DNA of 64,000 nt from positions 55,003-119,002 of the forward strand of contig NZ_FUXP01000005.1 of NCBI RefSeq assembly GCF_900167055.1. Reading direction: 5' to 3'. Under the pieces are notes generated by a model. The model did not search any database and had not been told where the DNA came from. It saw nothing but the letters and a program-made list of their open reading frames with translations. Of this stretch, positions 11,286 through 40,593 are shown piece after piece. Source of the stretch: Lysobacter spongiicola DSM 21749 (GTDB taxonomy: Bacteria > Pseudomonadota > Gammaproteobacteria > Xanthomonadales > Xanthomonadaceae). The first letter of the stretch is position 1. Every line of letters starts with the position of its first letter. The translations under genes were made by a program, and so were the position numbers.

Positions 11286-11303
11286 TGCCGGTCGCCAAGG
11301 CGA

Positions 11304-12239: not shown

Positions 12240-12269
12240 GCGCGGCTCCGGTAGGCGGTCGGTCCGATT

Positions 12270-13695: not shown

Positions 13696-13749
13696 GCGGT
13701 GAGGATGGGGGGCCGGGCCGCTGCAATCAAGCGGCGCCGGCGGGATGGT

Positions 13750-14469: not shown

Positions 14470-14522
14470 GGGCGGCCCGCCATCTGAACAGGCCGCCAGA
14501 CTACAACGCCCGGCTGGACCGG

Positions 14523-14948
14523 TCAGCTGCCAACGCTACGCAGCGCGTGCACCGCTTCAGGTTCGTCGACATCCGCGGCGCGCTTGCCGGCTTCCACGTG
14601 CAGCAGGCGGCCCGACAGCACCGAACCGGCCGCCATTTCCACCACCTTGTAGTGCACGTTGCCTTCCACCCGGGCCTTGGCGCCCATCTCCACGCGCTCG
14701 CTGGCGAACACATCGCCGTCGACCCGGCCGTGGATGACGATCACCGGTGCGTGGATCTCGCCCTCGACACTGCCATTGTCGGCCAGCGTCAGGATCGCCT
14801 TCTGGCCCTCCTCGGCGATGAGCTTTCCGACGATGCGGCCCTCCACGTAGAGGCCCCCGCTGAAGTGGAAGTCGCCGTTGATCACCACTTGCGGTCCGAT
14901 CAGCGTGTCGATCTGCCCTTCGGGCATGGTGGGCTTGCTCTTGAACAT
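14523..14948 (-). CDS. bactofilin (CcmA/DUF583 family)
   Basis: Beta-helical repeat pattern (VVINGDFHFSGGLYVEGRIVGKL...HGRVDGDV...VEGNVHYK). ATG is 1 nt after the stop of the upstream paralog B. Confidence 0.85.
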   Translation of the reverse strand: MFKSKPTMPEGQIDTLIGPQVVINGDFHFSGGLYVEGRIVGKLIAEEGQKAILTLADNGSVEGEIHAPVIVIHGRVDGDVFASERVEMGAKARVEGNVHYKVVEMAAGSVLSGRLLHVEAGKRAADVDEPEAVHALRSVGS

Positions 14949-14949
14949 G

Positions 14950-15678
14950 TCAGGTATCCCCGGTGGCTGGAGGTTGCACCCAGGCAATGGCCTGGTCGAG
15001 TGAAGCATCGCGGCCGCGCAACGAGACCCGCACCCGCTGGGGCGTGAACCCCGCCGGGAGCATCACGCTGCCATCGAGCTGCTGGAAATATCGGAATGAA
15101 TACGCCTGTGCCGGCGCGCCCTTGCGTTGTTTCAGGTCGTCCCAGCCGATGGTGGCGAGTTTGCCGTCGCGCACGCCCTCGATCGAGAAGCTCAACTTGC
15201 CGGCGCTGACGGCGCCACGCTCCAGGTTCTGGGTCAGGACGATCTGGTAACGCCAGGTGCCGGCGTCCTCGGCAACGAATTCGGCCGAGTGCACGTTGAG
15301 CCCCCGCGGCTTGCCTTCGCCAGCGGCCAGGCGCTCATAGAAGGCAAGGTTCTCGCGCAGGTCGGCGATTTCCTCGTCGCGCTCCGCCAACGCCTGCTGC
15401 ACCTTTCGGTTGGCTGCGCGGCTGATCTGGTCGGAGCGCTCCAGCGTGGCCTGGCGCTGGCGCAGCGCCTCCAGCTCGCTCTCCGCCGCTTCCAGCGCCT
15501 GTCGCGCCTGGCGCGGATCCCCGGCCAGACCAGGGACCGTGGGAGCGGCGATCCAGCTGGCGGCCAACCAGGCGGCGGCGAGGGTGATCGACCACGCCAG
15601 CGCCAGCAGGACCCATGCGAGATAGCCGCGCCGCTGGCGCGGCACGATGACGTAACCGGAATGACTGCGACTGCCCAT
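14950..15678 (-). CDS. membrane-anchored coiled-coil protein, paralog B (bactofilin-associated)
   Basis: Paralog of 13750-14469. Start chosen at the internal MGSRSHSG preceding the TM helix. The longest ORF extends to 16128 but is Arg/Gly-rich junk. Confidence 0.6.
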   Translation of the reverse strand: MGSRSHSGYVIVPRQRRGYLAWVLLALAWSITLAAAWLAASWIAAPTVPGLAGDPRQARQALEAAESELEALRQRQATLERSDQISRAANRKVQQALAERDEEIADLRENLAFYERLAAGEGKPRGLNVHSAEFVAEDAGTWRYQIVLTQNLERGAVSAGKLSFSIEGVRDGKLATIGWDDLKQRKGAPAQAYSFRYFQQLDGSVMLPAGFTPQRVRVSLRGRDASLDQAIAWVQPPATGDT

Positions 15679-18026: not shown

Positions 18027-18103
18027 GGCTATGTAGCTCAGCCGGTTAGAGCACAGCACTCATAATGCTGGGGTCGGTGGTTCGAGTCCACCCATAGCCA
18101 CCA
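18027..18103 (+). tRNA. tRNA-Met (CAU), elongator type
   Basis: GGCTATG/CATAGCC acceptor stem, anticodon loop CTCATAA, a G1-C72 pair and a 3' CCA. It is near-identical to the E. coli metT/U pattern. Confidence 0.9.
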
Positions 18104-25314: not shown

Positions 25315-25716
25315 GTGATCGAGTTCTACCCCCAGATCAAGCACGTCCACATCATGATGGCGGTCGCCAGCGGCCTGCTGTTCGCGTTGCGCGGCGCAGG
25401 CGCGCTGGCCGGCATGCGCTGGCCGCAATGGACCGCGGTGCGCTGGACCAGTTACGGCATCGACACCACCCTGCTGACGGCGGCGCTGATGTTGCTGACC
25501 ATCCTGCCCGGCGGCATGTTCGCCAACGGCTGGCTGGCGACCAAGCTGGTGCTGCTGGTGGTGTACGTGGTGCTGGGCATCTTCGCCCTGCGTCGCGGCC
25601 GCACACGGGCAGTGCGCGCGGGTTTCTATGTCGCCGCCCTGGCCACCTTCGCAATGGTCTACTCCATTGCCCGCGCGCACCATCCAATGGGGTTCCTCTA
25701 TGGCCTTGTCGGCTGA
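25315..25716 (+). CDS. SirB2/YchQ family membrane protein
   Basis: 133 aa with 4 TM helices. The WLATKLVLLVVYVVLG segment is similar to E. coli YchQ. Confidence 0.55.
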   Translation: MIEFYPQIKHVHIMMAVASGLLFALRGAGALAGMRWPQWTAVRWTSYGIDTTLLTAALMLLTILPGGMFANGWLATKLVLLVVYVVLGIFALRRGRTRAVRAGFYVAALATFAMVYSIARAHHPMGFLYGLVG

Positions 25717-27712
25717 CCTGCCGGTGCCGGGCAGCCTGCCCGCACCCACGCCCCGGCCCGCCCGGGATCCGGACCGGCCGTTGCTGGACGCACTGTTCCT
25801 GGGGCCCTACGGCGAGAACGACACCCTGTTGGAGAAGCTGGTGGTGGAGTTCCTGCGCGACCACGTCTACTGGCGCCGCAACTTCCATCCCGAGGACCCG
25901 CCGGCGATCCCGACCCACGCGGCCCAGCAGCCGGAATACCAGGCCTTCGAGGCCCGGCTGCGGCGGGAACTGCACCAGCTGTCGGCCTCGCTGAAGAAGT
26001 CGGTGCCGTTCCACAGCCCCCGCTACATCGGCCACATGGCCTCGGACCTGCTGCTGCCCGGCCTGGCCGCGCAGATGCTCACCCTGCCCTACAACCCCAA
26101 CAACGTCAGCGAGGACGCGGCACCGGTCACCATCGACCTTGAGGTGCAGGTCGGCCTGCAACTGGCGCGCATGCTCGGTTATCCCAGCGACCCCGCGCAG
26201 CCGCAATGCGCCTTCGGCCACCTTACCTCTGGCGGCACGGTCGCCAACTACCAGGCGCTGCGGCTCGCGCTTGCGTTGAAGGCATTCCCGGTGGCCTTGC
26301 GGGCGGCGGGCGTGCCGGATATCGAGCTGCCCGGCGATGACTGGTCGGCCTTCAACGCCGGCCCTGACGCAGGCACCGAGCTGCTGGTGAAGTGGCAGGA
26401 CTGGCTCGCGGCGCAGTCGCCGCGCGACCGCAGGCGCTGGCGCGAGGCGGTGCAGGCCGAGCGGATCGAGCATCTGGGCATGGTGGGCTTCTTCGCCCGC
26501 CACCAGGACCTGCGGGTGCCGAAGGTGCTCGCGCCGATCACCGCGCACTACTCCTGGAGCAAGGGGCTGAAGCTGCTGGGCCTGGGGCGCGACCAGCTGG
26601 AATTGCTGCCGGAACGCGGCATGCGCTTGGATGCCGAAGCGCTGGAAGAGACGCTGCAGCGATGCGGGCGCGAAAGGCAGCCGGTGCTGATGGCGGTGGC
26701 GGTACTGGGCACGACGGAATACGGCACGGTCGACCCGGTCGATGCGGTGGTCGACGCACGCGCCCGCGCACTCGAACGTGGCCTGGGCTTCAGCGTGCAC
26801 GTCGACGGCGCCTGGGGCGGCTACCTCGCCACCCTGTTCCGCAACCCCGATGGCAGCCTGCGCGGCCTGTGCGAGGTGCGCGAGGACTACGCGCGCTTCC
26901 CGTTGCCGGAGGTACATGCCGCTTTCGCCGCGCTGGGGCGGACCGACTCGGTCACCGTCGACCCGCACAAGCTCGGCTACCTGCCCTACGGCGCCGGCGC
27001 TTTCATCTGCCGCGACCATCGCGCCACTGCGCTGCTGTCGGAGGCGGCGGACTATGTGTTCCGCGAGGGGCCGGTCGATCCGGACCCGGCGCGCAATTAC
27101 CTCACGCGTTACCGGCAGCTGGGCCAGTTCGTGCCCGAGGGTTCCAAGTCCGGCGCCGCCGCGGCCGCGGTATACGTGACACACAAGGTGCTGCCGCTGG
27201 ACCATGAGAACTTCGGCCGGCTGCCCCGGCAGACGGTGCTGGCGGCGGAGGCATTGCATGAAGCGACCCTCGGCCTGGCCCGTGAGCTGGACGGCGTGGC
27301 CCGTGTGGCCGTGCCGTTCGCCCCTGACAGCAACCTGGTGTGCCTGGCGATCAACCCGGCCGGCAACGCCGACCTGTCGGTGGCCAACGCCTTCGTGCGC
27401 AGGATCCACGACGAACTGCGCAGCGACCCGCGCCAGCCGCTCCAGCTCAAGGAGTTCTTCGGTTCGATGACGACGCTGCGGCCCGAAGCCGTCGGCGATG
27501 TCGAGATGGCACGGATCCTGGGCGCGATCGGGTTGGATCCGGACACGCTGGATCCCGACGGTGGCAACGATAACGATCGTCTGGTGATCCTGCGCCACAC
27601 ACTGATGAACCCCTACCTGGTCGACCACGCCAACGGCATCAGCTACATCGACATGTACCTGGCCTACCTGGGCCGGCGCATCCGCAGCCTGTTGTTGGTC
27701 CCGGCGGCGTGA
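25700..27712 (+). CDS. PLP-dependent group II amino-acid decarboxylase (large form)
   Basis: HLTSGGTVANYQALRLAL and DPHKLGYLPYGAG (PLP-Lys) motifs. ~670 aa. Confidence 0.75.
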   Translation: MALSADLPVPGSLPAPTPRPARDPDRPLLDALFLGPYGENDTLLEKLVVEFLRDHVYWRRNFHPEDPPAIPTHAAQQPEYQAFEARLRRELHQLSASLKKSVPFHSPRYIGHMASDLLLPGLAAQMLTLPYNPNNVSEDAAPVTIDLEVQVGLQLARMLGYPSDPAQPQCAFGHLTSGGTVANYQALRLALALKAFPVALRAAGVPDIELPGDDWSAFNAGPDAGTELLVKWQDWLAAQSPRDRRRWREAVQAERIEHLGMVGFFARHQDLRVPKVLAPITAHYSWSKGLKLLGLGRDQLELLPERGMRLDAEALEETLQRCGRERQPVLMAVAVLGTTEYGTVDPVDAVVDARARALERGLGFSVHVDGAWGGYLATLFRNPDGSLRGLCEVREDYARFPLPEVHAAFAALGRTDSVTVDPHKLGYLPYGAGAFICRDHRATALLSEAADYVFREGPVDPDPARNYLTRYRQLGQFVPEGSKSGAAAAAVYVTHKVLPLDHENFGRLPRQTVLAAEALHEATLGLARELDGVARVAVPFAPDSNLVCLAINPAGNADLSVANAFVRRIHDELRSDPRQPLQLKEFFGSMTTLRPEAVGDVEMARILGAIGLDPDTLDPDGGNDNDRLVILRHTLMNPYLVDHANGISYIDMYLAYLGRRIRSLLLVPAA

Positions 27713-28800
27713 GCACGACGGCCGCCTCGACCGAAGAGATGCGCCAGTGGACGCGGCAGTCGCTTGCGCGCCTTCGGCAGGAGGCCGCGCGGTCGGCAGA
27801 CACCCATCTGTTGAAACTCGAGTTCCCGGGCTTCCCCGGCATCGACTTCTACTTCAAGGACGAGGCCGCCCACCCGACCGGCAGCCTCAAGCACCGCCTC
27901 GCGCGTTCGCTGTACCTGTACGCGCTGTGCAACGGGCGGCTGCGGCGCGGGCAGCCGGTGGTCGACGCCTCCTCGGGCAGCACCGCGATCTCCGAAGCCT
28001 GGTTCGCGCGGTTGCTCGGGCTGCAATTCACCGCGGTGATGCCGGCTTGCACCGCACCGCGCAAGATCGCCGACGTACAGGCGCTGGGCGGCCACTGCGA
28101 CCTGGTCGACGACCCTGCGCAGGTCTACGAGCGGGCCGCCTGGCATGCCACCAACGGTGCCTGTCACCTCGACCAGTTCGGCCTGGCCGAACGCGCGACC
28201 GATTGGCGCGGCAACAACAACATCGCCGAGTCGATCATCGGGCAGTTGGCGGGAGAACCACATCCGGAACCGGCATGGATCGTCTGTGGCGCCGGTACCG
28301 GTGGGACGTCCGCCACCATCGGCCGCTACCTGCGCTACCGCAGCCTGCCCACCGGCCTGTGCGTCGCCGACCCTGCCGGAAGCGCTTTTATCCATGGCTG
28401 GCACCGTCGCGATCGCGATGCCACCTGCAGCCATCCCACGGTGATCGAAGGCATTGGCCGCCCACGTGTTGAACCCGGCTTCCTGTTCGACGTCGTCGAT
28501 GAAGTCGTCGAGGTGCCCGACACCGCCTCCATCGCCGCCATGCGGCTGCTCGAAGAGCACCTTGGCCGGCGCTATGGCGGATCCTCCGGCACCAACCTCG
28601 TCGGCTGCCTGCGGCTCGCCGCGCAGATGCGCGCCGATGGCATCGAGGGCAGCATCGTCAGCCTGCTGTGCGACCCCGGCGAGCGCTACGACCAGACCCT
28701 GTACGACCCGGCATGGCTGACACGACGCGGGCTGGACCCGTCCGGCGCCGAGGCCGCACTCCGTGCGATCATTGCCACCGGGGAATGGCACGGCCTGTAG
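27709..28800 (+). CDS. PALP-fold (cysteine synthase/threonine dehydratase superfamily) PLP enzyme
   Basis: GSLKHRLARS PLP-lysine motif and GTGGTSATIGRYL glycine loop. ATGA overlap with the upstream decarboxylase. Confidence 0.7.
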   Translation: MSTTAASTEEMRQWTRQSLARLRQEAARSADTHLLKLEFPGFPGIDFYFKDEAAHPTGSLKHRLARSLYLYALCNGRLRRGQPVVDASSGSTAISEAWFARLLGLQFTAVMPACTAPRKIADVQALGGHCDLVDDPAQVYERAAWHATNGACHLDQFGLAERATDWRGNNNIAESIIGQLAGEPHPEPAWIVCGAGTGGTSATIGRYLRYRSLPTGLCVADPAGSAFIHGWHRRDRDATCSHPTVIEGIGRPRVEPGFLFDVVDEVVEVPDTASIAAMRLLEEHLGRRYGGSSGTNLVGCLRLAAQMRADGIEGSIVSLLCDPGERYDQTLYDPAWLTRRGLDPSGAEAALRAIIATGEWHGL

Positions 28801-28925: not shown

Positions 28926-29588
28926 ATGAAAGCAGGGAAGCCAAAGTCGTCGGCAGTCTACGTCCGGGAATTCCGGGCGCGGATGCGCGAGGCCGGACTG
29001 GTCAAGAAGGACGTCTGGATCCGGCCGGAGTACGCCCGGGACCTGGCGGCGGCGGAACAGCGATTCCGCCAGATCCCAGGCACAGCTACGACCGCGGCTT
29101 CCGCGCCGGCCCAGCGGGACGACGCCGCCGCAACGCCGGGTTGGACCCTGCCCTCGCTCCAGCACGCCCTGGAAACCTCTCCCCTTGTGCAATCGGGCGG
29201 GATCGAAGTCCACCGCTCCGAAGGCGCCGACCCGACCCTGCGCCTGGTGATGCGCGAGTACGGCGACCTGCCTGTGTTTATCGCCGTGGGCGGCTGGCAG
29301 ATCGTGGTCCAGGTACTGATGTGGCCGGTCGACCACGTGACCGATCCGGCCGCCTTCAATGCCCACGTCCTGCGCACCCACAAGCTGCTGCCCCTGACCA
29401 CGATGGGCATCGAGCCTGTGGCCGGGGTAGCGAGCTACATCATGTTCGGCTCGCTGGGGACCCAGTCGAGCCTTGCCGACATCCTCTTCGAGATCGACAC
29501 GCTGGCCGAGAACGTCATCGCCTGTGTCGACGCCTACGGCTTCTTCCTGCGCGATGACGTGTTGCCGCAGGACGAGACACGCCCATGA
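28926..29588 (+). CDS. DUF2170 (YjfI-like) protein
   Basis: Position upstream of a PspA/YjfJ-like gene is as in E. coli yjfIJ. The C-terminal region is conserved. The DUF assignment is tentative. Confidence 0.5.
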   Translation: MKAGKPKSSAVYVREFRARMREAGLVKKDVWIRPEYARDLAAAEQRFRQIPGTATTAASAPAQRDDAAATPGWTLPSLQHALETSPLVQSGGIEVHRSEGADPTLRLVMREYGDLPVFIAVGGWQIVVQVLMWPVDHVTDPAAFNAHVLRTHKLLPLTTMGIEPVAGVASYIMFGSLGTQSSLADILFEIDTLAENVIACVDAYGFFLRDDVLPQDETRP

Positions 29589-30337
29589 AGCCCGGCAGCA
29601 CCTTCCTCGGCCGCCTCAGCGCGCAGATCGCGGGCATCGGCGAGATCGCCCGCGGGTGGAATGCCGGCCGTGAGCTGGACGATCGGATCCATCGGGTCGA
29701 TGAAGAGTTGCGCACCCTCCGCCGCGAGATGGACGTACTCAAGGCGCAGGCCCTCACCACCCGGGAGCGTCGCGATGCCCTGGCAGACAAGCTCCTGCAG
29801 CGGGAAACCCAGGCGATGGATGCGCTGCGGACCGGACATCCGGCGCTGGCAAGGGAGGTCGCCGCAGCCATCGTCGACCTGGAAGCCGAACACCGGGCCG
29901 AGCAGGCGCTACTGGCGGCCAACGCGAAGCAGGCGGCTGGCCTCCAGGCGATGGTGCGGCAGGGCGAGAACACGCTGAGACGCCTCAAGCACGAGCTCGA
30001 CCTGCTGCGCGCGTCGGAAGCGGTCGCCAGTGCCGAACAGGCTTTCGCCGGAAGCCAGGCCGGAGAAGGGGCCGGCATCCCCACCGCCATCGATTCCGCC
30101 GAGCTGTTGCGGGCGCGACAGGCCGCCGCGCAGTCCGATGCTGCTCTGGCGACCGGTTCCGCAGGTCCCGATCCGCTGGACGAGAAGCTGCGGAAAGCGG
30201 GAATCGCGCAGCCGGCGTCGCCGGTGGACGCCGTCCTGGCCCGGCTGGCGGAACAGGCAGGAGTCACCGCACGACCGCCGGGCCGGTCCGGGAAGCGATC
30301 CGGCACCGCGGCAAACAAGGAGAATCCCGATGAGTGA
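29585..30337 (+). CDS. PspA/IM30 family protein (YjfJ-like)
   Basis: All-helical coiled coil of 250 aa with a PspA-like N-terminal amphipathic region. ATGA overlap with the upstream gene. Confidence 0.7.
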   Translation: MKPGSTFLGRLSAQIAGIGEIARGWNAGRELDDRIHRVDEELRTLRREMDVLKAQALTTRERRDALADKLLQRETQAMDALRTGHPALAREVAAAIVDLEAEHRAEQALLAANAKQAAGLQAMVRQGENTLRRLKHELDLLRASEAVASAEQAFAGSQAGEGAGIPTAIDSAELLRARQAAAQSDAALATGSAGPDPLDEKLRKAGIAQPASPVDAVLARLAEQAGVTARPPGRSGKRSGTAANKENPDE

Positions 30338-30965
30338 GTTCCTGCTGACCGTCCTGACCTTCCCCACGCTCGCCTATAGCGTGGTGCTAGCGGTATGCAC
30401 GATCTACTGGGCGCTGGCGGCTACCGGGCTGGTGGAGACGGACGCACTTGATGGCCTGCTGGGTGGCGACGGCGATGTCGGCGATTCCAGTGGCGCTGCC
30501 GCCATGCTGTCCAGGCTCGGCCTGTCAGGCGTGCCGGTGATGGTGGTAATCACCGTGCTGGCCTTCGTTGGTTGGCTCGGCACCTACTTCGTGCACCTGC
30601 TGCTATTGGCGCACCTGGGCGACACCCTGCGCCCGGTCATCGGCGCGGCGGTCGCGGTCGCGATGCTGGTCCCCGGCATCTTCGCGACCTCCGCGCTGCT
30701 GCGCCCGCTGGGGCGCTGGTTGCTCAAGCTGCGTCCGCCACGCGACCCCTCGATCCTGGGGCGCGTAGCGGTGGTCAGCACCCCGGAAGTAAGCGTGGAC
30801 TACGGCATGGCGACCGTCGATGACGGCGGCGCCGGCCTGGTCCTGCAAGTGCGTGATCAGGAACCCGGCCGATTCAAACGCGGCGACCGGGTCGTGCTCA
30901 TCGAATACCTCGATGCGCAGCATGCCTACCGCGTGATACCGGAACGGCAGTTCCAGGCCCTGTAA
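30330..30965 (+). CDS. YqiJ/NfeD-like membrane protein with C-terminal OB-fold
   Basis: TM helices plus a C-terminal beta-rich OB-like domain (GRVAVVSTPEV...GDRVVLIEYLD). It is immediately upstream of the flotillin, as in yqiJK. Confidence 0.65.
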   Translation: MSEFLLTVLTFPTLAYSVVLAVCTIYWALAATGLVETDALDGLLGGDGDVGDSSGAAAMLSRLGLSGVPVMVVITVLAFVGWLGTYFVHLLLLAHLGDTLRPVIGAAVAVAMLVPGIFATSALLRPLGRWLLKLRPPRDPSILGRVAVVSTPEVSVDYGMATVDDGGAGLVLQVRDQEPGRFKRGDRVVLIEYLDAQHAYRVIPERQFQAL

Positions 30966-30992
30966 GAGTTCGATTCCCAAGGAGAGGTAGCA

Positions 30993-33008
30993 ATGAGTAT
31001 GTCCATGATCCTGCCGTTCGTAGTCGGCGCAGGCGTACTGCTGGTCGTGATGCTCGGCATCTTCGGCCTGTTCAAGGCCTTCTACGTCAAGGTGCCGCAG
31101 GGCACGGCGCTGATCGTCAACGATCTCAGCGCCACGCCCAAGGTCCGCTTCACCGGCGGCCTCATCATCCCGGTCCTCTACAAGGCCGAGCTGATGCAGA
31201 TCAGCCTGATCACCCTGCAGGTGGACCGCCGCGGACGGGAGGGCCTGATCTGCCGCGACAACATGCGGGCGGACATCTCCGTTGCCTTCTACCTGCGCGT
31301 CAACGAGACCCAGCAGGACGTGCTGCGCGTGGCCAAGGCCGTCGGCGCCGAGCGCGCGTCGGACAAGGCCGCCGTCGACGAGCTGTTCAACGCCAAGTTC
31401 TCCGAGGCGCTGAAAACGGTCGGCAAGAAGTTCGAATTCACCGAGCTGTTCGAGAAGCGCCAGGAGTTCCGCGACGAGATCATCAAGATCATCGGCAACG
31501 ACCTCAATGGCTACGTGCTCGAGGACGTGGCGATCGACTACCTCGAGCAGACCAAGAAGTCCGAGCTCGATCCGAACAACATCATGGATTCGGAGGGCAT
31601 CAAGAAGATCACCCAGATCACGGCGACGCAGAACGTCGTCACCAACGAGCTGGAACAGAACGAAAAGCTGGCGATCACCAAGAAGAACGTCGAAGCACGC
31701 GAGGCGACCCTGGCGCTGGAGCGCCAGCAGGCCGAGGCCGAAGCCCGGCAGCAGCGGGAGATCGAAACCATCCGCGCACGCGAGGAGGCCGAAACCGCGC
31801 GCGTCCGCGAGGAACAGCGGCTGGTTGCCGAGCAGGCGCGGCTGGAATCGGACGAGAAGATCCAGATCCGCGAGCAGAACGTGCATCGGGAAGTTGAGGT
31901 CGCCGAGCAGAACCGCCAGCGTGCGGTGGCGATCGAGGAAGAGCGCGTAGTGCGCGCCCGCGAACTGGAGAAGGTCACCACCGATCGCGAAGTCCAGCTG
32001 CAGGCGGTCGAGCGCGACAAGGTGGTCGAGGTCGGCAAGAAGGACGTGGCCAACATCACCCGCGAGCGCATCGCCATCGACAAGACGGTAGCCATCGAGG
32101 AAGAGCGCATCATGGAAGTGCGCGTCGTTTCCGAGGCCGAACGCGAGAAGCAGGCCCGGGTACTGGCCGCCGAGGCTGCGGCGCAGGAAGCCCTGGTCCA
32201 CAAGGTCAAGGAAGCAGAGGCCGCCGAAACCGCGGCCAGGCACCGGGCCGTGGAGCGGACCACGCTCGCGCAGGCCGAGCTGGAAGCAGCAACCCGCGAA
32301 GCCGAGGCCAAGCGGGTACTCGCCGACGGCGTCAAGGCCGAGCAGGCCGCCCCGGGGCTGGCCGACGTGCAGGTGCGCGAGGCGGAAGCACAGGCGATCG
32401 AGAAGCAGGGCGTCGCCGAGGCCCGCGTGATCGAAGCCAAGGCCGCCGCGCGACTGGTCGAGGGCACCAACGATGCCCGGGTACTTGCCGAGCGCATGGC
32501 CGCCGAGGCCGAAGGCACGGCGAAGCAGGGCCAGGCCAACGCCGCATCGGTCGAAGCCGTGGGCAGCGCCGAGGCCAACGTGACGGTCAAGAAGCTGACC
32601 GCGGAAGCCGAGGGCCTGACCCGGAAGTTCGAGGCGATCGACTCGCTGTCGGTCAACGCACGCAGCCACGAGGAGTTCCGCATGTCGCTGGAAACCCACC
32701 TCCAGCAGGCGCTCGCGTCGATCTCGGCGGGCAAGGACGTGGCCAAGGAGAACGCCGAGGTCATCGCATCGGCGTTGCGCAACGCGAACATCGACCTGGT
32801 CGGTGGCGACGGCGGCCTGTTCGAAGCCTTCTCCAAGTCGCTCTCGCTGGGCAAGGCCGTCGAAGGCCTGGCAGGCAAGAGCCCGATCGTGCAGGACCTG
32901 ATGAGCCGCTACCTGGGCGTCACCGCGGTTGAACCGGCACCCGCGAAGCTGCCGGGGCACGGCGCCGGGGAACGCGTCGCGCCGGCGATCCCGGACGCGG
33001 GCGCCTGA
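30993..33008 (+). CDS. flotillin/SPFH (band-7) family protein, YqiK-like
   Basis: N-terminal TM and SPFH domain, followed by a very long EA-rich coiled coil. 671 aa. Confidence 0.85.
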   Translation: MSMSMILPFVVGAGVLLVVMLGIFGLFKAFYVKVPQGTALIVNDLSATPKVRFTGGLIIPVLYKAELMQISLITLQVDRRGREGLICRDNMRADISVAFYLRVNETQQDVLRVAKAVGAERASDKAAVDELFNAKFSEALKTVGKKFEFTELFEKRQEFRDEIIKIIGNDLNGYVLEDVAIDYLEQTKKSELDPNNIMDSEGIKKITQITATQNVVTNELEQNEKLAITKKNVEAREATLALERQQAEAEARQQREIETIRAREEAETARVREEQRLVAEQARLESDEKIQIREQNVHREVEVAEQNRQRAVAIEEERVVRARELEKVTTDREVQLQAVERDKVVEVGKKDVANITRERIAIDKTVAIEEERIMEVRVVSEAEREKQARVLAAEAAAQEALVHKVKEAEAAETAARHRAVERTTLAQAELEAATREAEAKRVLADGVKAEQAAPGLADVQVREAEAQAIEKQGVAEARVIEAKAAARLVEGTNDARVLAERMAAEAEGTAKQGQANAASVEAVGSAEANVTVKKLTAEAEGLTRKFEAIDSLSVNARSHEEFRMSLETHLQQALASISAGKDVAKENAEVIASALRNANIDLVGGDGGLFEAFSKSLSLGKAVEGLAGKSPIVQDLMSRYLGVTAVEPAPAKLPGHGAGERVAPAIPDAGA

Positions 33009-33079
33009 CCCGGGCGCCTCCATTGCCGGCGGCAGCCCGTGCCGCCGCCGGTACCACCACCCAAGCAAGGATCCGCAAG

Positions 33080-33337
33080 ATGACCGCTGAACGCGACCAC
33101 CTGGAAATGGCCTTCCACTCCATCACCTGCTTCGCCGACGACGGCCGGCTGGATGCCGCCGAACTCGATCGCATCGTTGCCATCGCCGAGCGCGACGGCA
33201 CCATCAACGAGGACGAGACCCGCGTGCTGCACAACATCATCGCGCGCATCACGCCCGGCGAGATCGATGCATTGATGAAGATGCGCCTGGATGCCCTGCG
33301 CCGGAAGATCGGGCCGCCAGCGGAGCCCGCGGCCTGA
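33080..33337 (+). CDS. TerB-like small protein
   Basis: ADDGRLDAAELDRIVAIAERDGTINEDETRVL resembles TerB/DjlA-N tandem helical metal-binding repeats. Start chosen at MTAERDHL. Confidence 0.45.
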   Translation: MTAERDHLEMAFHSITCFADDGRLDAAELDRIVAIAERDGTINEDETRVLHNIIARITPGEIDALMKMRLDALRRKIGPPAEPAA

Positions 33338-33407
33338 GCCACCGCCGCCACCGCCTGCCCTCCCGAATGCAGCATGGAACGCCCGATAGCGCGGGCGAGG
33401 TCCCACG

Positions 33408-36400
33408 ATGACGTCTTCAGCAACCACCGACACCCTGCCCGACAACGCCCCCGAAACCGGATCAGTCGACCAGGCCGTCGCCCAGGGCGGCGCCTACGAA
33501 GTGCTGCGCCGGCGCCTTTCCGACCAGGGCGCGCGCCTGCGCGGCATCGCCGAGCGGATCAATGCCCGGCGGCTGGAGGAGTTCGGCAGCAGCCGGATGG
33601 AGGTGATCGGCCGCCTTCGCGTCCGCACAGAGAACAACTGCACGGGCCGGGACATCGTCCAGGTCGGCGACCTGCTGCTGTTCGGCTACAACGTCTTCAT
33701 CGGCTTGAAGACCACGACCCGGGTCGAGGACGTCTTCGGACTGTACCGGCTGGTGGAGAACGACGGCGCCTTCGACGTGGAGCAGGTCGCACTCGATGGC
33801 AGCTTCCTGGGCGATGCCCAGTTCCAGCGCGACTTCACCGAGTTGTATGCCTACTACAAGGACGCCCGCCTGCTGCAGTTGATCGTGCGCGAAGGCAAGC
33901 TCCTGGCCTCGTTCCAGATCGGCGAGCGCAGCAGCGATACCCGGGTGTTCCGATGGGCGCTGACGGCCCACGGCGAGGTGAAGTACATAGACGCCCGCGG
34001 CGAGCGCGACCTGACGATGCCGCCGCCGTTCGATTTCGAGTGGACGCGCGCGACGCGCGAGCTGATGGTCAGCGGGCGCCACCCGCACCTGAACGTACTC
34101 GACACCCTGTTCGTCGAGACCACCGGCGGCGACCTCACCATCAAGGTCGAGGACAACACCGAGACCGGCGAGGGCATCCACTCCGAACCGGTCGAGGACA
34201 AGACCCAGTCGCTCGATGACGCGACCTTCGATTTCGCCCGCGTCGGCTCGCTTGTCCTGCTCAAGGTCCTGCCCTACCGCGAAAACGAATGGCGTGGCTT
34301 CATCTACAACACGCTCACCGGCCGGGTACAGCGCAACGACGCGATCATCCAGGCGTGCGTCCAGCTGCCCGAGGACCACGGCATCATCTTCCCGGGCGGC
34401 TACTACCTGCAGAACGGCGAGCACAAGGCCTTCGACGCGGGCATGGACGGCATGCAGTTCAAGCGTGCGATCCGCTCGCCCAACGGCGAAGACGTGCTGT
34501 ACATCTTCTACGAACACCACGCCGGCAAGTCGGCCCTGTTTGTCTACAACATGATCCAGCGCGAGCTGCAGAACCCGGTCTTCGGCCACGGCTATGCGCG
34601 TCTGGCCGACGGGCGCATGGTGGTCTTCCACGCCGAGGGCGATGGCGCCACCCGCATCCATCCGATGCAGGTCTGGCAGACGCCTTTCGTGAGCGACGAG
34701 TTCGCGGCCAGCAGGCCACCCGGCAACACCTACCTGGGCCGGCTGGGCAACGCCGAGCTCGTGCGCGGCATCTCCAACCTGATGAACCTGTCGAGGCAGA
34801 TCGGCAGCGAAGAAGTATCGCTGCAGCGCTACCAGCTGCTCGCGCGTGACACCCGGCGGCTGTTCGATGCCCACCACTGGATCGACGACGCCCACTGCGA
34901 CGGCGTCGCCAGCCTGCTGCGCGAGATCGCCGCGACCGGCGAGTCCATGCTCGATGAGTTCGAGAAGGTGCAGGGCATCCGCCGGCAGTCCGCCCAGGCC
35001 CTGGTCGATGCGCGTACCGAACATGCGGCGCTGGTGGCGCGCCTTCTGCCCGACAACTGGTCGCAGGTGCAGGAGTTCGTCGACGCGCTCAACGAGATCA
35101 CCCGCCAGCGCGGCCACCTGCTCACGATCCGCGAGTACCGCTACATCGACGTTGCCGCCATCGACGCCCTTGGCGCACAACTGCAGGAGGAGCATGAGCG
35201 CATCGGCGCCGCTGCTGGCCGGTTCCTGGCGGGCGAGAAAGCCCTGGCACCGTTCATCGACCGGGTGCAGGCGCTCGACGAAGAAGCCGGAAAGGCCGAA
35301 ACCGCCACCGCCCTGGGTGAGCGCCTCGCCGCGCTGAGGGCGATGTCGGCGGACCTGGACATGCTGTCCGAGCTCATGGCGACCCTGAAGGTCGATGACG
35401 CCGCCCAGCGCACCCGGGTGGTGGAGGCCATATCGGCCATCTACGGCCGCCTCAACCAGGCCCGTGCCCGGGCCGAACAACGGCGCAAGACACTGGGGTC
35501 GGCCGAAGCGGTGGCCCAGTTCGCTGCCCAGTTCACCCTGTTCGGGCAGGCCATCACCGGCGCCCTCGGATTGGCGACCGATCCGGAGAAAGCCGACGAG
35601 CAGCTGTCGCGCCTGATGATCCAGCTCGAGGAGCTTGAGAGCCAGTTCGGCGAACACGAACAGTTCCTCGGCGTCATCCTCAGCAAGCGCGAGGAGCTGC
35701 TGGATACCTTCGAGGCGCACAAGCAGGCCTTGCTGGATGATCGCCACCGCAAGGCGCAGTCGGTTCTGGACGCGGCCAATCGCATCCTGGCGGGGCTCGA
35801 CAAGCGCACCGAGAAGTTCTCCAACCCCGACGAGCTCAACGCCTTCTTCGCCGGCGATCCGCTGACCCTCAAGGTCCGCGAGCTGGCCGAGCGGCTGCGG
35901 GCGCTGAAGGATTCGGTGAAGGCCGACGACATCGAGGCGCGCCTGAAGGGCGCGCGCGACCAGGCGGTGCGTGCCCTTCGCGATCGCGTGGATCTTTTCG
36001 AAGGCGGTGGCCAGGTCATCAAGCTCGGCCGCCACCGCTTCAGCGTCAATACGCAGTCACTGGACCTGACCATCCTGCCTCGGGGAGACCAGCTCGCGCT
36101 GCACCTGACCGGCACCGATTTCATGGAGCCGATCGACGACCCCGCCCTGGGGGAGCTGCGCGAATACTGGCAGGCCGGGTTGGAGTCCGAGTCGCCGACG
36201 CTGTACCGGGGCGAGTACCTCGCTGGCGAGATCATCTCCGCCGCGGCGACCGGCGCCGAGGGGCTGGAAGAGGACACTCTGCAGCGGCTGTCCGGTGACT
36301 TGCCCGCCCTGACCACGGCGGTCCGCGAGTTCGCGGCGCCACGCTACCGCGATGGCTACGAGCGCGGAATCCACGACCACGACGCGGCGCTCATCCTGCG

Positions 36401-38738
36401 TGCATTCCTGGTGCAGCGCGACCTGGCTGGGACCCTGGTCCACGCACCGGCACCGCGTGCGCTGGCGATGCTGTTCATGGCAGCCCATCGCAGCGACGAG
36501 GACGTCGCGCAATGGGCGGGCCGCGCGACCAGTGCATCGGCGATGCAACGACTGTTCGGCTCGCGCGCCAGCCTGGAGGCGCTGACCAGCGAGATGTCGG
36601 CGCGACTGCTGGCCTTCGTGGAGCAGGCCACGTTGCCATTCGAGCCATCCGTGGCCACTGCGGCCGCCAGCTTCCTCATCGACCAGCTGATCGGTGGCGA
36701 CGAGGCCTTCGCCTTGTCACGCCACGGCCGCGAACTGGCGGAGATGCTGCAGGACAGGATGGGCACGGCCGGGCTCCATACCCCCTTCCAGCACACCCTG
36801 GCGCAGCTGCACGACCGCCACGGTGCGCGCTGGCAGCACGTGGTGCACTGGCTGCAGGCGCTCTGCAACGATGCCGCGGCGGCCTCCATGGCCGCCTATG
36901 TGCCCGAAGCCGCTGCCTGGATGCTGACCCGGGAGACGCTTGCGTTCCAGGACCACGGCGTCGCCCTCCAGACCACCGTCGAGGGGCTGCTGGGGGAGCA
37001 CCCGCTTGTTTCCGAAGGCCGGATACAGCTGGCCGCGGACGACCTGCTGGCCCGGCTACGCACCCACAGGGAACGCTTCCTGCCGGGATACCGGCGGTAC
37101 CACGCGCTGCGGCACGAGATCGCGGCGCGCGAGCGCGACGCGCTCCGCCTGTCGGAGTTCCAGGCCCGCCCGTTGTCGTCGTTCGTCCGCAACAAGCTCA
37201 TCAACGAGGTCTACCTGCCGATCATCGGCGACAACCTCGCCAAGCAGATGGGCACCGCCGGCGAGGACAAGCGCAGCGACCTCATGGGCCTGCTGATGAT
37301 GATCTCGCCACCCGGTTACGGAAAGACCACGCTCATGGAGTACGTGGCCAGCCGCCTCGGCCTCGTCTTCATGAAGGTCAATGGTCCCGCCCTCGGCCAT
37401 GAAGTGCGCTCGGTCGATCCCGCACAGGCACCCGATGCCACCTCGCGCCAGGAGCTGGAAAAGCTGAACCTGGCTTTCGAGATGGGCAACAACGTGATGC
37501 TCTATCTGGACGACATCCAGCACACGCATCCCGAGTTCCTGCAGAAGTTCATCTCGCTGTGCGACGGTACCCGCCGGGTGGAAGGCGTATGGAAGGGCCG
37601 GACCCGGACCTACGACATGCGCGGCAAGAAGTTCTGCGTGGTCATGGCCGGCAATCCGTACACGGAGTCCGGCGAGGTCTTCAAGATCCCCGACATGCTT
37701 GCCAACCGCGCCGACATCTACAACCTCGGCGATGTCCTGGGCGGGATGGAGGACACCTTCACGCTGAGCTACATCGAGAACAGCCTGACCTCCAACCCGG
37801 TGCTGGCACCGCTGGCCACGCGCGACCTGGCCGACCTGTACCGGCTGGTGGACAAGGCCCGCGGCGAAGAGGTCTCCACCAACGACCTCTCGCATGCCTA
37901 CAGTGCCGCCGAGATCAACGAGATCGTGCAGACGCTGGTCCGGGTGATCAAGGTGCGCGACGTGGTCTACCGCGTGAACCAGCAGTACATCGCCAGCGCC
38001 GCCCAGGCCGACAAGTACCGCACCGAGCCGGCCTTCAAGCTGCAGGGCAGCTACCGCAACATGAACAAGCTGGTTGAGAAGATCTCGCCGGTGATGAATG
38101 ACGACGAGTTGCAGCAGCTGATCGGCGACCACTACCTGGGCGAGGCGCAACTGCTGACGGTCGGGGCGGAAGAAAACCTGCTCAAGCTGGGAGAGCTGCG
38201 GGGGGTCCTGACATCCGCGGAGCAGGAACGCTGGGAGCAGATCAAGCGCGACTTCCTGCGCAACAAGGCGATGGGGGCCGATGACGCCGACGTCGGCGGG
38301 CGCGTGGTGGCGCAACTGGCCGACATCGCCGGCGGGCTGCAGGCCATGGGCGAGGCCGCCCCTCGCCGGCAACTTTCTGCCACCGATGGTGCGCCGCAGC
38401 CGGATCCTGCGCCGTGGAAAGAGGCGCTCGCGCTCCTGGAGCGCGTGCTCGCCAGCCGCGCCGCCGACGACGCCACCGACGCTACCGGCCCGGACAGTGC
38501 CGGCACGCTGCTGAAGACGGCGGTCGAGCCGTTGATCGCCGCCATCCACTCCAGCCAGGGACAACAGGCACAGCTCAATACGGCGATGCTCCACCTGGCC
38601 AGCGCGATACGCGCCGGAATGAGCGTGCGCCAGGGCACCGGACGCAGGCCGCATACTCCGACGCCCGACGAGCGCCGACTGGACGAGGCACTCGAGCGGC
38701 TGCACGCCGGGCTGAAGGACGATCCGGCCAGCCCGTGA
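33408..38738 (+). CDS. giant (1776 aa) multidomain protein with an AAA+ ATPase domain (Mg-chelatase/ComM-like)
   Basis: Walker A ISPPGYGKTTLMEY (~res 1290), Walker B VMLYLDDIQHT and a sensor region VVMAGNPYTESGEV. The N-terminus is beta-rich and a long helical/coiled-coil middle follows. The ORF is uninterrupted with good codon bias. Confidence 0.8.
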   Translation: MTSSATTDTLPDNAPETGSVDQAVAQGGAYEVLRRRLSDQGARLRGIAERINARRLEEFGSSRMEVIGRLRVRTENNCTGRDIVQVGDLLLFGYNVFIGLKTTTRVEDVFGLYRLVENDGAFDVEQVALDGSFLGDAQFQRDFTELYAYYKDARLLQLIVREGKLLASFQIGERSSDTRVFRWALTAHGEVKYIDARGERDLTMPPPFDFEWTRATRELMVSGRHPHLNVLDTLFVETTGGDLTIKVEDNTETGEGIHSEPVEDKTQSLDDATFDFARVGSLVLLKVLPYRENEWRGFIYNTLTGRVQRNDAIIQACVQLPEDHGIIFPGGYYLQNGEHKAFDAGMDGMQFKRAIRSPNGEDVLYIFYEHHAGKSALFVYNMIQRELQNPVFGHGYARLADGRMVVFHAEGDGATRIHPMQVWQTPFVSDEFAASRPPGNTYLGRLGNAELVRGISNLMNLSRQIGSEEVSLQRYQLLARDTRRLFDAHHWIDDAHCDGVASLLREIAATGESMLDEFEKVQGIRRQSAQALVDARTEHAALVARLLPDNWSQVQEFVDALNEITRQRGHLLTIREYRYIDVAAIDALGAQLQEEHERIGAAAGRFLAGEKALAPFIDRVQALDEEAGKAETATALGERLAALRAMSADLDMLSELMATLKVDDAAQRTRVVEAISAIYGRLNQARARAEQRRKTLGSAEAVAQFAAQFTLFGQAITGALGLATDPEKADEQLSRLMIQLEELESQFGEHEQFLGVILSKREELLDTFEAHKQALLDDRHRKAQSVLDAANRILAGLDKRTEKFSNPDELNAFFAGDPLTLKVRELAERLRALKDSVKADDIEARLKGARDQAVRALRDRVDLFEGGGQVIKLGRHRFSVNTQSLDLTILPRGDQLALHLTGTDFMEPIDDPALGELREYWQAGLESESPTLYRGEYLAGEIISAAATGAEGLEEDTLQRLSGDLPALTTAVREFAAPRYRDGYERGIHDHDAALILRAFLVQRDLAGTLVHAPAPRALAMLFMAAHRSDEDVAQWAGRATSASAMQRLFGSRASLEALTSEMSARLLAFVEQATLPFEPSVATAAASFLIDQLIGGDEAFALSRHGRELAEMLQDRMGTAGLHTPFQHTLAQLHDRHGARWQHVVHWLQALCNDAAAASMAAYVPEAAAWMLTRETLAFQDHGVALQTTVEGLLGEHPLVSEGRIQLAADDLLARLRTHRERFLPGYRRYHALRHEIAARERDALRLSEFQARPLSSFVRNKLINEVYLPIIGDNLAKQMGTAGEDKRSDLMGLLMMISPPGYGKTTLMEYVASRLGLVFMKVNGPALGHEVRSVDPAQAPDATSRQELEKLNLAFEMGNNVMLYLDDIQHTHPEFLQKFISLCDGTRRVEGVWKGRTRTYDMRGKKFCVVMAGNPYTESGEVFKIPDMLANRADIYNLGDVLGGMEDTFTLSYIENSLTSNPVLAPLATRDLADLYRLVDKARGEEVSTNDLSHAYSAAEINEIVQTLVRVIKVRDVVYRVNQQYIASAAQADKYRTEPAFKLQGSYRNMNKLVEKISPVMNDDELQQLIGDHYLGEAQLLTVGAEENLLKLGELRGVLTSAEQERWEQIKRDFLRNKAMGADDADVGGRVVAQLADIAGGLQAMGEAAPRRQLSATDGAPQPDPAPWKEALALLERVLASRAADDATDATGPDSAGTLLKTAVEPLIAAIHSSQGQQAQLNTAMLHLASAIRAGMSVRQGTGRRPHTPTPDERRLDEALERLHAGLKDDPASP

Positions 38739-39499
38739 CCAGGCCCTACGCCCACCCCGCACCTGCCGCCACGCCCGAGGAGATCGAACTTGGCGGCCGC
38801 GGGATATCGGCGGCGGTCGACATGGACGCGATCAACACCCTGCTTGCCGGTCTGCCGACTTCCGCGCTGATGGCGGAACTCGACGCGATCGTGGAAGTCA
38901 TCGACGCCTCGGATACCGGCCGTGCCCGGCGCCGGGCCGGGTTGCTGGGCCGGCTGCTCGGACGTGACCTGGTGGCACGCGCCAATCCGGATGCCACGGC
39001 GGACCGGGTACGGGTACACCTGGCGCATGCAGCGGAGCATGCAGGTCTGCTTGCAAGCCACCTGTCTGCCCTGGAAGCGGTCTATTCACCGCTGCAGCAA
39101 CAGATCGACGCCATGGATGCATTCGTGGAAGCCAGCCGGAACACCATTGGCCCGGCACCTGACGAACCCGACCCTCGGCATCTGCTTGCCCACCGCCACC
39201 TCGAACGCTTCCAGGCTGTCGGCGTGTCCTGGCGACACACCCGCGCCCAGGTCCGGATGGCGGTGGACCACGTCCACCTGGTGCTGGACCGGTACCGCAA
39301 GGTGCGCGACCTGCTGGTTCCGCTCTGGCGCCAGCACCACGCCGGCGGCGCCCTGGAGGAACGGCTTCGGGAGCGACTGCCGGCAGGCGAGAACGACCGG
39401 CAAGCACTGCATCGATTGATCGCATCGCTGCAGACATCCCCGCCCACCACGCATACTCCAACCCATCCGAACCCGGCCGACAGGGAGCCATCGCCATGA
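38735..39499 (+). CDS. hypothetical protein (possible degenerate TelA-like), translationally coupled
   Basis: GTG overlaps the giant gene's TGA (GTGA) and its stop overlaps the telA ATG (ATGA). It is helical and carries GLLGRLLGRD, which resembles the TelA PIVGPLLDRM region. Confidence 0.45.
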   Translation: MTRPYAHPAPAATPEEIELGGRGISAAVDMDAINTLLAGLPTSALMAELDAIVEVIDASDTGRARRRAGLLGRLLGRDLVARANPDATADRVRVHLAHAAEHAGLLASHLSALEAVYSPLQQQIDAMDAFVEASRNTIGPAPDEPDPRHLLAHRHLERFQAVGVSWRHTRAQVRMAVDHVHLVLDRYRKVRDLLVPLWRQHHAGGALEERLRERLPAGENDRQALHRLIASLQTSPPTTHTPTHPNPADREPSP

Positions 39500-40593
39500 C
39501 CGAGTCCACCACCGACCTTCCCCCCGTGCAGCTGCCTGCCGGGCTCGGGGAAGAGACGCTCAAGCAACTCGGCCTGGTGCCCGCCGACCTCGAGCAGGTC
39601 ACCGCGATACATGCCGGCCTCGCCGACCTCTCGCCGACCGACACGCAGGGCTACGGCCGCGACGTGGCCGCGGCCACCACCCGCTTCTCCAGCGAGCTGC
39701 TCGACCAGGTCCGCAACCGCGACCTGGACGCGACCGGCGAAAAGCTCGGCGAAGTGGTGCGCATCGCGCGCAACCTCAACCTGCACAAGTTCAGCGCACG
39801 CTCCAAGTTGCCGATCGTCGGTCCCCTGCTTGACCGCATGCGCGACTCCCGCGGCGAGCTCGTCCAGAAGTTCAGCTCCACCAACGAGCAGATCGAGCAG
39901 CTGATGCGCGACGTGTCTCGTCAGCAGGATGACCTGGGCAAGCGTGTGCGCGATTTCGACCGCATGTACGAGATGGTCGCAACCGAACGCCACCAGCTCG
40001 GCCTGCACGTGGCAGCGGGAAAGATGAGGCTGCGCGAACTCGAAAATGAGCGCGCCTCGCTCGAATCCGCCGATGATCCGCAGTCGCGCACCCGGCGCCA
40101 GCAGATCGACACCACATTGCGCCTGCTGGACAAGCGCGTGGGCGACCTGCTCCTGATGCAGCATGCCGCCGACCAGTCGCTGCCGATGATCAGGATGATC
40201 CAGGCCAACGCGATGCAGTTGATCGAGAAGTTCACCTCGGTCCGTGACATCACCATTCCGGCCTGGAAGCGCAGCTTCGCCATCCAGCTGTCGCTCAACG
40301 AGCAGAAGCAGGCGGTCGAGCTGGCCACTGCGATCGATGACGCCACCAACGAGCTGATGCGGCGCAATGCCGACCTGCTGCACGAGAGTTCAGTGGCGAC
40401 CGCCAAGGCCAACCAGCGCGGTGTCATCGACCTGGAGACGCTGCAGCACGCCCACGACAAGCTGATCCAGACGGTCGAGGACGTGCGCCAGATCCATCGC
40501 GAAGGCATCGACCAGCGCCGGCAGGCCGAAGCCGACCTTGCACGCATGCGGGAAGACGTACAGAAGCGCCTGGCGGCACCCACCGTCGACTGA
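39496..40593 (+). CDS. telA: toxic anion resistance protein TelA (KlaB family)
   Basis: 365 aa, colinear with the TelA family (FSSELLDQV...LPIVGPLLDRMRDS...QHAADQSLPMIRMIQANA). Confidence 0.8.
   Translation: MTESTTDLPPVQLPAGLGEETLKQLGLVPADLEQVTAIHAGLADLSPTDTQGYGRDVAAATTRFSSELLDQVRNRDLDATGEKLGEVVRIARNLNLHKFSARSKLPIVGPLLDRMRDSRGELVQKFSSTNEQIEQLMRDVSRQQDDLGKRVRDFDRMYEMVATERHQLGLHVAAGKMRLRELENERASLESADDPQSRTRRQQIDTTLRLLDKRVGDLLLMQHAADQSLPMIRMIQANAMQLIEKFTSVRDITIPAWKRSFAIQLSLNEQKQAVELATAIDDATNELMRRNADLLHESSVATAKANQRGVIDLETLQHAHDKLIQTVEDVRQIHREGIDQRRQAEADLARMREDVQKRLAAPTVD

Follow-up and report, generated by a model that had tools for sequence, protein, structure and literature searches.

The 64,000-nucleotide stretch of Lysobacter spongiicola DSM 21749 DNA analysed here, called the window throughout (contig NZ_FUXP01000005.1, positions 55,003 to 119,002 of the forward strand), encodes at 33408..38738 a 1776-aa protein with an AAA+ ATPase module in its C-terminal third. 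The protein falls in a catalogued, biochemically unstudied family, as an ordinary ortholog; by sequence comparison, it is the counterpart of Pseudomonas aeruginosa BacE (PA3728/PA14_16190), and the gene cluster around it is a variant of the bacABCDEF operon. The genomic context, which comprises flotillin, NfeD, PspA and TelA genes, is the main clue to the function of the ATPase. We propose, with the chances of being right or wrong about evenly balanced, that the protein acts, driven by ATP, as a remodeller of the membrane-stress assemblies of flotillin and/or PspA, or as a factor in their assembly.

Chain anatomy, ATPase clade and family

The open reading frame (ORF) at 33408..38738 has a GC content of 0.889 at codon position 3, against 0.427 at position 2. 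The ORF is a genuine gene, and such a position-3 value is typical of one in a 68% GC genome. Many long overlapping ORFs are also present in other frames (for example 33462..36035 on the - strand, 857 aa), and these could speak for a mis-joined or frameshift-fused frame in a high-GC genome. The likelihood of such an artefact is negligible: it is ruled out by the position-3 GC content, by homologs of the same length that align end to end in hundreds of 50%-identity clusters, by confident structure models, and by an ortholog on a P. aeruginosa-like contig (L098, see below).

The chain was modelled with AlphaFold2 in two parts, residues 1-900 and 871-1776, using alignments of 69 diverse homologs; the conservation profile likewise comprises 69 diverse homologs, down to ~30% identity. 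The N-terminal model has a predicted local distance difference test score (pLDDT) of 86.4 and a predicted template modelling score (pTM) of 0.65, the C-terminal model a pLDDT of 89.6 and a pTM of 0.78, and confidence holds across the domain boundaries. The features of the gene are as follows.

33408..38738 (+): gene for the 1776-aa DUF3686-DUF7902-AAA+ protein, BacE/PA3728 ortholog by homology (ATG start; Pfam)
33492..33584 (+): N-terminal long helix, residues 29-59 (AlphaFold2 model read with DSSP; conservation profile)
33588..34697 (+): beta-rich propeller-like domain, residues ~61-430, core of DUF3686 (~28 predicted strands)
34698..36011 (+): helical arm, residues 431-868, stacked long-helix bundles including DUF7902 (predicted helices from 442 to 863)
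36012..36212 (+): small beta domain, residues ~869-935 (strands predicted in both models)
36213..37157 (+): all-helical domain packed on the ATPase, residues 936-1250 (pLDDT 94-98)
37158..37742 (+): AAA+ alpha/beta core, residues 1251-1445 (AlphaFold2)
37305..37331 (+): Walker A, SPPGYGKTT, residues 1300-1308 (1300-1307 invariant and T1308 96% conserved in 69 homologs)
37500..37523 (+): Walker B, LYLDDIQH, residues 1365-1372 (D1368, D1369, Q1371 and H1372 100% conserved)
37638..37658 (+): sensor-1, VVMAGNP, residues 1411-1417 (G1415, N1416 and P1417 100% conserved)
37707..37709 (+): R1434 in PDMLANRAD, putative arginine finger at the box VII position (100% conserved)
37743..38357 (+): lid and extra helical domain, residues 1446-1650 (predicted helices; LQGSYRNM motif)
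38358..38735 (+): C-terminal tail, residues 1651-1776 (pLDDT 35-78)

Pfam DUF3686 (PF12458) covers residues 44-490 over practically its whole model (positions 2-448 of 448, E = 6.8e-198, 658 bits for a cut-off of 25), DUF7902 (PF25472) matches residues 611-694 (90 bits), and at residues ~1296-1423 both AAA_5 (27-30 bits) and AAA exceed their gathering scores. Sequence and profile searches for relatives in the PDB matched no solved structure beyond the Walker A region. Neither a transmembrane segment nor a signal peptide is predicted; judged from its sequence, the protein (~195 kDa) would be cytoplasmic, and its partners membrane-anchored.

An earlier note on this DNA, made from the letters alone, had divided the chain into an N-terminal beta-rich domain, a middle part made of helices and one late AAA+ module, and both the AlphaFold2 models and Pfam bear this out. 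The richness in aromatic residues that it saw in the N-domain is confirmed as well, with 10.3% in residues ~61-430 against 2-7% in the rest of the chain. Its ~700-aa helical middle is borne out too, there being ~800 residues of helices, with two additions: the helices are interrupted at residues ~869-935 by a small beta domain that it did not see, after which a second helical domain follows. The strands of this small domain are found at residues 870-899 of the N-terminal model and at model residues 17-38 of the C-terminal one, with pLDDT > 90, and a profile scan gave it no family match. The helical domain at 936-1250, also without Pfam match, is the least conserved structured part of the protein (mean identity to the query 0.30-0.33). 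At the two extremities, residues 1-28 are disordered and without conservation, and the tail at 1651-1776 is poorly conserved (identity 0.11, occupancy 0.48). As for the N-terminal beta domain, a Foldseek search paired it with beta-propellers (Ski8, YncE, paraoxonase, prolyl oligopeptidase, Ctf4) at a probability of ~1, and the model weakly suggests a divergent, propeller-like fold.

The AAA+ core is the best conserved segment, at 0.77 identity to the query, and the Walker A lysine, the two Walker B aspartates, N1416, R1434 and R1550 are invariant in all 69 sequences. Walker A, Walker B and a sensor had all been recognised by the earlier note, and all are present, Walker A being at 1300-1308 and not at ~1290 as it had been placed. 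In the model, R1434 sits at the end of the helix that precedes strand beta5, and from this position we assign it a putative arginine-finger role. In the lid, the LQGSYRNM motif is invariant apart from N1551 (86%), and R1550 within it is a candidate sensor-2.

A beta-hairpin is predicted at residues 1390-1403, just ahead of the sensor-1 strand, and this hairpin, together with the AAA_5 match, leads us to group the module with MoxR, dynein and midasin. According to the model, the nearest relatives are MoxR (CbbQ/NorQ), dynein and midasin rather than MCM/ComM, to which the ATPase had previously been likened, or Vps4. The pairing of a classical-clade AAA domain with an N-terminal MIT domain, by which a Vps4-type protein would be recognised, was not found. 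MoxR-specific family models gave no match, and even the excised module searched at E <= 1 retrieved only the generic AAA_5, AAA, AAA_22 and RuvB_N; NCBIfam and PADLOC scans of the whole protein gave just P-loop noise. As to the helix-2 insert of the MoxR family (a beta-hairpin in alpha2), the model shows a loop of ~18 residues (1326-1343) between beta2 and alpha2, without predicted hairpin. One JGI record calls a homolog 'MoxR-like ATPase', by name only.

The protein differs clearly from each of these relatives. MoxR chaperones such as CbbQ and NorQ have ~250-350 aa, whereas here the module is preceded by a 1250-residue N-terminal extension; identity to them is just 13-17%, the Walker B pair is Asp-Asp, and the cluster has no VWA/MIDAS partner. 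Dynein and midasin (Rea1) contain six concatenated AAA modules, whereas this protein has one per chain, so that any ring would be a homo-oligomer. None of the linker, stalk and MIDAS domains of dynein and midasin was recognised in the 1776-aa chain.

A word-indexed protein search returned 6231 homologs at E <= 1e-5. The 120 best of these belong to Lysobacter, Luteimonas, Stenotrophomonas, Xanthomonas and relatives; they are 1670-1820 aa long and 66-99% identical, and all 120 carry the same precomputed domain set (DUF3686, DUF7902, AAA_5); the best named match among the homologs listed is 82% identical (Novilysobacter / Lysobacter sp. A3-1-A15). An exhaustive HMMER search with residues 577-1776 against representatives of 50%-identity clusters gave 1494 clusters at E <= 1e-3, and 568 at E <= 1e-30. 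The full-length matches are 1600-1930 aa long, and query residue ~578 pairs with their residue ~545-620, which implies that the N-terminal half is also present in them. At identities as low as ~30-35%, the homologs still have the single-chain architecture of ~1600-1900 aa and their domains in the same order. Consistent splitting of the homologs into several genes, which the earlier note had named as a possible sign of a mis-joined ORF, is not seen, full length being the rule over this whole range.

The family spans at least four phyla, including Pseudomonadota, Bacteroidota, Actinomycetota and Deinococcota. Members were named in Chitinophagaceae, Niabella and Aureibacter (Bacteroidota) and in Victivallales, and occur also in Deinococcus, Streptomyces, Nonomuraea, Hymenobacter, Vibrio, Photobacterium, Proteus and Halomonas. 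The earlier description of such a protein as atypical for bacteria is refuted by this spread and by the size of the named DUF3686/DUF7902 family, with its more than 6200 homologs. Plasmid copies are rare (13 of 72,556 records) and mostly on megaplasmids or chromids.

Two sets of copies stand under unexpected labels. At 10001-15316 of JAHREJ010000015.1, a contig labelled Bacillus subtilis SK7B5, there is a Stenotrophomonas-like copy of 70% identity, accompanied by the same neighbours, which is probably an assembly contamination. Copies that share 73-74% identity with the Lysobacteraceae gene are present on four contigs from metagenome-assembled genomes under the label Longimicrobium (Gemmatimonadota), and are nearer to it than many Xanthomonadales copies; either recent horizontal transfer or mis-binned contigs would account for them.

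Most of the best 120 homologs bear the NCBI product name 'DNA repair ATPase', which agrees with the Pfam description of DUF3686, and the protein does have a weak P-loop similarity to RuvB (16-19 bits over ~35-45 residues). The RuvB matches, however, are limited to the surroundings of Walker A and compare with cut-offs of 282-299 bits; DNA-binding, nuclease and helicase domains were not found by profile scans, and the structural neighbours are MoxR, dynein and midasin. Moreover, the conserved gene neighbours (flotillin, NfeD, PspA, TelA) all encode membrane proteins, and a literature search gave no paper tying the family to DNA repair. Because only the P-loop resemblance to RuvB supports the label, we disfavour it; the database name is probably wrong, and a DNA repair ATPase is a very improbable identity for this protein.

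The gene cluster and the bac operon

Eight tightly packed genes on the same strand, at 28926-40593, include the ATPase gene. The other seven are listed here.

28926..29588 (+): DUF2170/YjfI/BacA-like protein (CesT/Tir-type chaperone-regulator), first gene of the cluster (DUF2170 E = 5e-43)
29585..30337 (+): PspA/IM30 protein, YjfJ/BacB-like, bacterial ESCRT-III superfamily (Pfam PspA_IM30 E = 4e-19)
30330..30965 (+): YqiJ/YuaF (short NfeD)-like membrane protein with three transmembrane segments, BacC-like (three hydrophobic segments; weak YqiJ_N match)
30993..33008 (+): 671-aa flotillin-like SPFH protein, BacD/PaFlo3-like (homology to Band_7-positive and flotillin relatives)
33023..33337 (+): small ORF, 104 aa as listed, variable member of the cluster (found by tblastn in 18 of 80 loci; weak EF-hand matches only)
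38735..39499 (+): 254-aa helical ORF with GTG start (found by tblastn in 23 of 80 loci)
39496..40593 (+): protein of the TelA (toxic anion resistance) family, closing the cluster (Pfam TelA E = 8e-75)

We examined the neighbourhood in a close set of 80 genome loci, from relatives 53-77% identical, where all counts are lower bounds because some contigs end nearby. In 79 of the 80 loci, the gene directly upstream of the ATPase gene is flotillin-like; an NfeD-like gene is found upstream in 76 and TelA downstream in 44, and DUF2170 is present in 32 and PspA in 30. Across Lysobacteraceae, the ATPase gene occupies a syntenic chromosomal position. In a distant set of nine sampled representatives at 31-43% identity, a pair of genes for ~200-aa and ~600-700-aa proteins is immediately upstream in seven, and the flotillin-like proteins, 37-48% identical, are at least as conserved as the ATPase. 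PspA is linked in four of these nine: in two, both Bacteroidota, a CesT_Tir protein accompanies it; in one it follows the ATPase gene together with DUF2170, and in one it is in convergent orientation. The flotillin/NfeD/ATPase trio is also found on Streptomyces and Deinococcus replicons. The flotillin/NfeD linkage, seen across close and distant loci, is therefore the primary and ancient one, and PspA with a CesT-like protein, as well as TelA, are frequent add-ons to this core. All of this context had escaped the earlier note.

The identity of the flotillin-like protein deserves a comment. It has an N-terminal transmembrane segment, an SPFH-like region and a long Glu/Ala-rich coiled coil, and gave no match of its own in Pfam, NCBIfam or a PDB sequence search. 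We consider it flotillin-like because it shares 40% identity over 624 aa with a neighbour-encoded protein that has a precomputed Band_7 match, because it is 61% identical to the ORF equivalent to PA14_16180 (PaFlo3; PMC13086221), and because its Streptomyces counterpart is annotated 'flotillin family protein'.

In P. aeruginosa, bacA-F (PA14_16140-16200) are co-transcribed and were named 'biofilm-associated cluster', and a bacA mutant has BacB-F increased 6- to 13-fold (PMC10948618). The SPFH protein PaFlo3 is encoded by PA14_16180 and a short homolog of NfeD by PA14_16160 (PMC13086221); PA3728 is listed as 'ATPase'. A bac primer of PMC10948618 retrieved P. aeruginosa-like contigs from a metagenome collection, among them L098, on which the primers of that study map in operon order. 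The ORF of L098 that lies between the 16180/90 and the 16190/200 primers encodes 1746 aa, and over 1705 aa its product shares 65% identity with the window protein. The upstream order is shared between the two clusters: DUF2170/BacA (47% identical), PspA/BacB (37%), NfeD-like/BacC (46% to the ORF equivalent to PA14_16160) and flotillin-like/BacD. Against NCBIfam NF050185, 'biofilm formation regulator BacA', the first product of the window cluster scores 234.6 bits, under the 300-bit equivalog cut-off.

The two clusters differ around the ATPase gene, ahead of which the window has the extra small ORF, and after which it has the 254-aa ORF and TelA where the bac operon has BacF. At the equivalent position, the 254-aa protein and P. 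aeruginosa BacF have no detectable similarity. A sigma-54 -24/-12 site has been proposed for bacA (PMC10948618), whereas none was found upstream of the first gene of the window cluster, our sigma-54 search giving fewer matches than chance across the window; a scan of the cluster for sigma-70 promoters and terminators was uninformative.

For one of the printed primers, PA14_16180/90_R (GCGATGCAGTTGTTTTTCGGT), a search that allowed up to 2 substitutions gave no match in L098, a contig that reaches the start of the ORF (region around 4465-4700), and the metagenome collection contained no match either. Its reverse complement, taken from the supplementary primer table of PMC10948618, has one extra A relative to the expected coding sequence for ...TENNCIA..., which looks like a typographical error.

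The operon itself has already been described, both as bacABCDEF (PMC10948618) and by comparative genomics (PMC11237479). In the latter work, Ravi et al. 2024 list in their Table S3 a 'Betapropeller+Coiled-coil+AAA-ATPase' protein in CesT/Tir-PspA-YqiJ/YuaF-Band-7/flotillin operons, the same domain architecture and operon partners as in the window, where the flotillin gene and the YqiJ/YuaF gene with three transmembrane segments are adjacent and a CesT/Tir-type and PspA dyad is present. They also report that abbreviated operons of flotillin, YqiJ and AAA+ genes are more widespread (PMC11237479), to which our Stenotrophomonas, Streptomyces and Deinococcus loci correspond. Their analysis is purely comparative, and does not deal with the ATPase clade, its structure, or the link to DUF3686 or BacE; the TelA linkage is absent from it (0 occurrences of 'TelA'; PMC11237479). 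Our literature search on the combination of PspA, flotillin, TelA and AAA gave nothing, and one on YqiK/YqiJ/AAA gave general SPFH papers only.

Defence systems commonly include large AAA+ proteins that have sensor-like repeat domains, and the family could be an anti-phage or abortive-infection component that senses infection at the membrane. PA3728-PA3732 were indeed induced in all phage-infected P. aeruginosa samples of one study (PMC12041424). Such an induction is, however, expected anyway of a Psp-type membrane-stress operon. The best matches in PADLOC-DB v2, IetA (E = 0.019) and mad8 (E = 0.027), are confined to the P-loop, and no nuclease or other effector domain was found by profile scans. 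The syntenic chromosomal position across Lysobacteraceae, among neighbours of a housekeeping, envelope-stress type, and the rarity on plasmids also argue against it. We therefore regard a defence role as improbable.

Regarding the remaining genes, the PspA gene start overlaps the DUF2170 gene by 4 bp. The GTG of the 254-aa ORF overlaps the ATPase stop codon, and its own stop overlaps the TelA ATG, so that it appears from the sequence to be translationally coupled on either side; its product has a faint pairwise similarity to TelA (E = 7e-4). The true start of the small ORF at 33023..33337 is probably internal, and its relatives in the 18 loci occupy varying positions in the cluster, which in some cases are upstream of the DUF2170 gene. 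On visual inspection the small ORF looks like a TerB-like helical domain, and this would be in keeping with the TelA linkage. Directly 5' of the cluster, at 25628-28800 (+), are genes for a 694-aa pyridoxal phosphate-dependent decarboxylase-like protein and a 363-aa PALP protein (cysteine synthase/threonine dehydratase-type), which overlap by 4 bp; they were not found beside the cluster in the 80 related loci. Elsewhere in the window, a tRNA-Met (CAT) at 18027-18103 (+) is the sole Rfam/ARAGORN match.

A candidate remodeller of flotillin and PspA scaffolds

PspA and Vipp1 are ESCRT-III proteins of bacteria, and the large membrane cages of flotillins are a further scaffold; the present proposal concerns what powers their assembly and disassembly. 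According to a 2025 review, a Vps4-like ATPase 'appears absent in bacteria' (PMC7619361). We propose the following scheme for the 1776-aa protein. Its AAA+ modules would assemble into a ring, probably a hexamer, since the invariant arginine at the box VII position suggests inter-subunit active sites. The propeller-like head, at the tip of a helical arm of ~440 residues, would be the likely target-binding element, and the arms would reach the flotillin/NfeD assembly at the inner membrane face, and PspA polymers where these are present. ATP binding and hydrolysis would then drive assembly, remodelling or disassembly of the scaffold under membrane stress. Analogous couplings are known for FtsH inside HflK/C (SPFH) cages and for Vps4 on ESCRT-III: in each case an AAA+ machine is coupled, genetically or physically, to an SPFH scaffold or to a protein from the ESCRT-III superfamily, which includes PspA. 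The analogy is one of function alone, as the AAA+ clade is different. The 'mechanochemical scaffold' put forward in the earlier note is a reasonable idea for a candidate role.

Several observations weigh against this proposal. For two of the nine distant homologs (Aureibacter and Victivallales), the gene is solitary, and neither a flotillin nor a PspA gene is nearby. A paFlo3 mutant of P. aeruginosa has its biofilm reduced by just ~20% (PMC13086221). The Foldseek matches of the head to propellers have E-values of just 1e-5 to 1e-4 and template modelling scores of 0.32 at most, making the propeller assignment weak. Profile scans found no VWA/MIDAS match in any cluster gene or in the 1776-aa protein, though a MoxR-type ATPase is usually paired with VWA. 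A literature search gave no biochemical or experimental study of BacE or of any DUF3686 protein in any organism, and ring formation, the physical partner or substrate, and the direction of remodelling are all points that we infer. Finally, the acidic pair of Walker B is Asp-Asp and not the usual Asp-Glu across the 69 diverse members, that is, family-wide, which may mean slow hydrolysis, and a switch rather than a motor.

This last feature leads to a second scenario. An Asp-Asp Walker B is compatible with slow ATP turnover, and the protein might be an ATP-gated static scaffold or assembly chaperone, in which nucleotide-dependent changes of conformation, with slow hydrolysis, would help the flotillin/NfeD microdomain to mature or to become organised, or would load a client into it, without extraction of subunits. 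The invariance of the Asp-Asp pair fits this scenario, the closest structural relatives include the MoxR chaperones CbbQ and NorQ, and the very long and confidently modelled helical arm resembles a spacer or ruler. However, the arginine finger, sensor-1 and candidate sensor-2 are invariant, as in a hydrolysing ring, and a VWA/MIDAS partner was not found in the cluster. We consider a static scaffold or chaperone rather unlikely, while sequence data cannot separate it from the remodeller.

The remodeller proposal can be given a more precise form, which we advance tentatively as possible: BacE-type proteins would be homo-oligomeric rings of the dynein/MoxR type, with six propeller-tipped arms that grip flotillin/NfeD cages and/or PspA (ESCRT-III) polymers, and assemble or strip them in membrane repair.

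To what has been published, our analysis adds that the family Pfam DUF3686/DUF7902 is that of BacE, that its ATPase groups with MoxR, dynein and midasin and not with Vps4 or MCM, that its primary linkage is to flotillin and not to PspA, and that the whole chain can be modelled with confidence. It adds also that the 'DNA repair' product name is without support and is spreading through annotation. The existence of the gene will be no surprise to a specialist, and the BacE family is a credible candidate for an ATP-driven remodeller of bacterial flotillin and ESCRT-III-like scaffolds. Its linkage to flotillin/NfeD, and often to PspA, its invariant ATPase site, and its long arm and head make it a strong genomic candidate; if the proposal is true, BacE-type proteins would be the missing bacterial remodeller, a functional counterpart of Vps4 or of FtsH-HflK/C.

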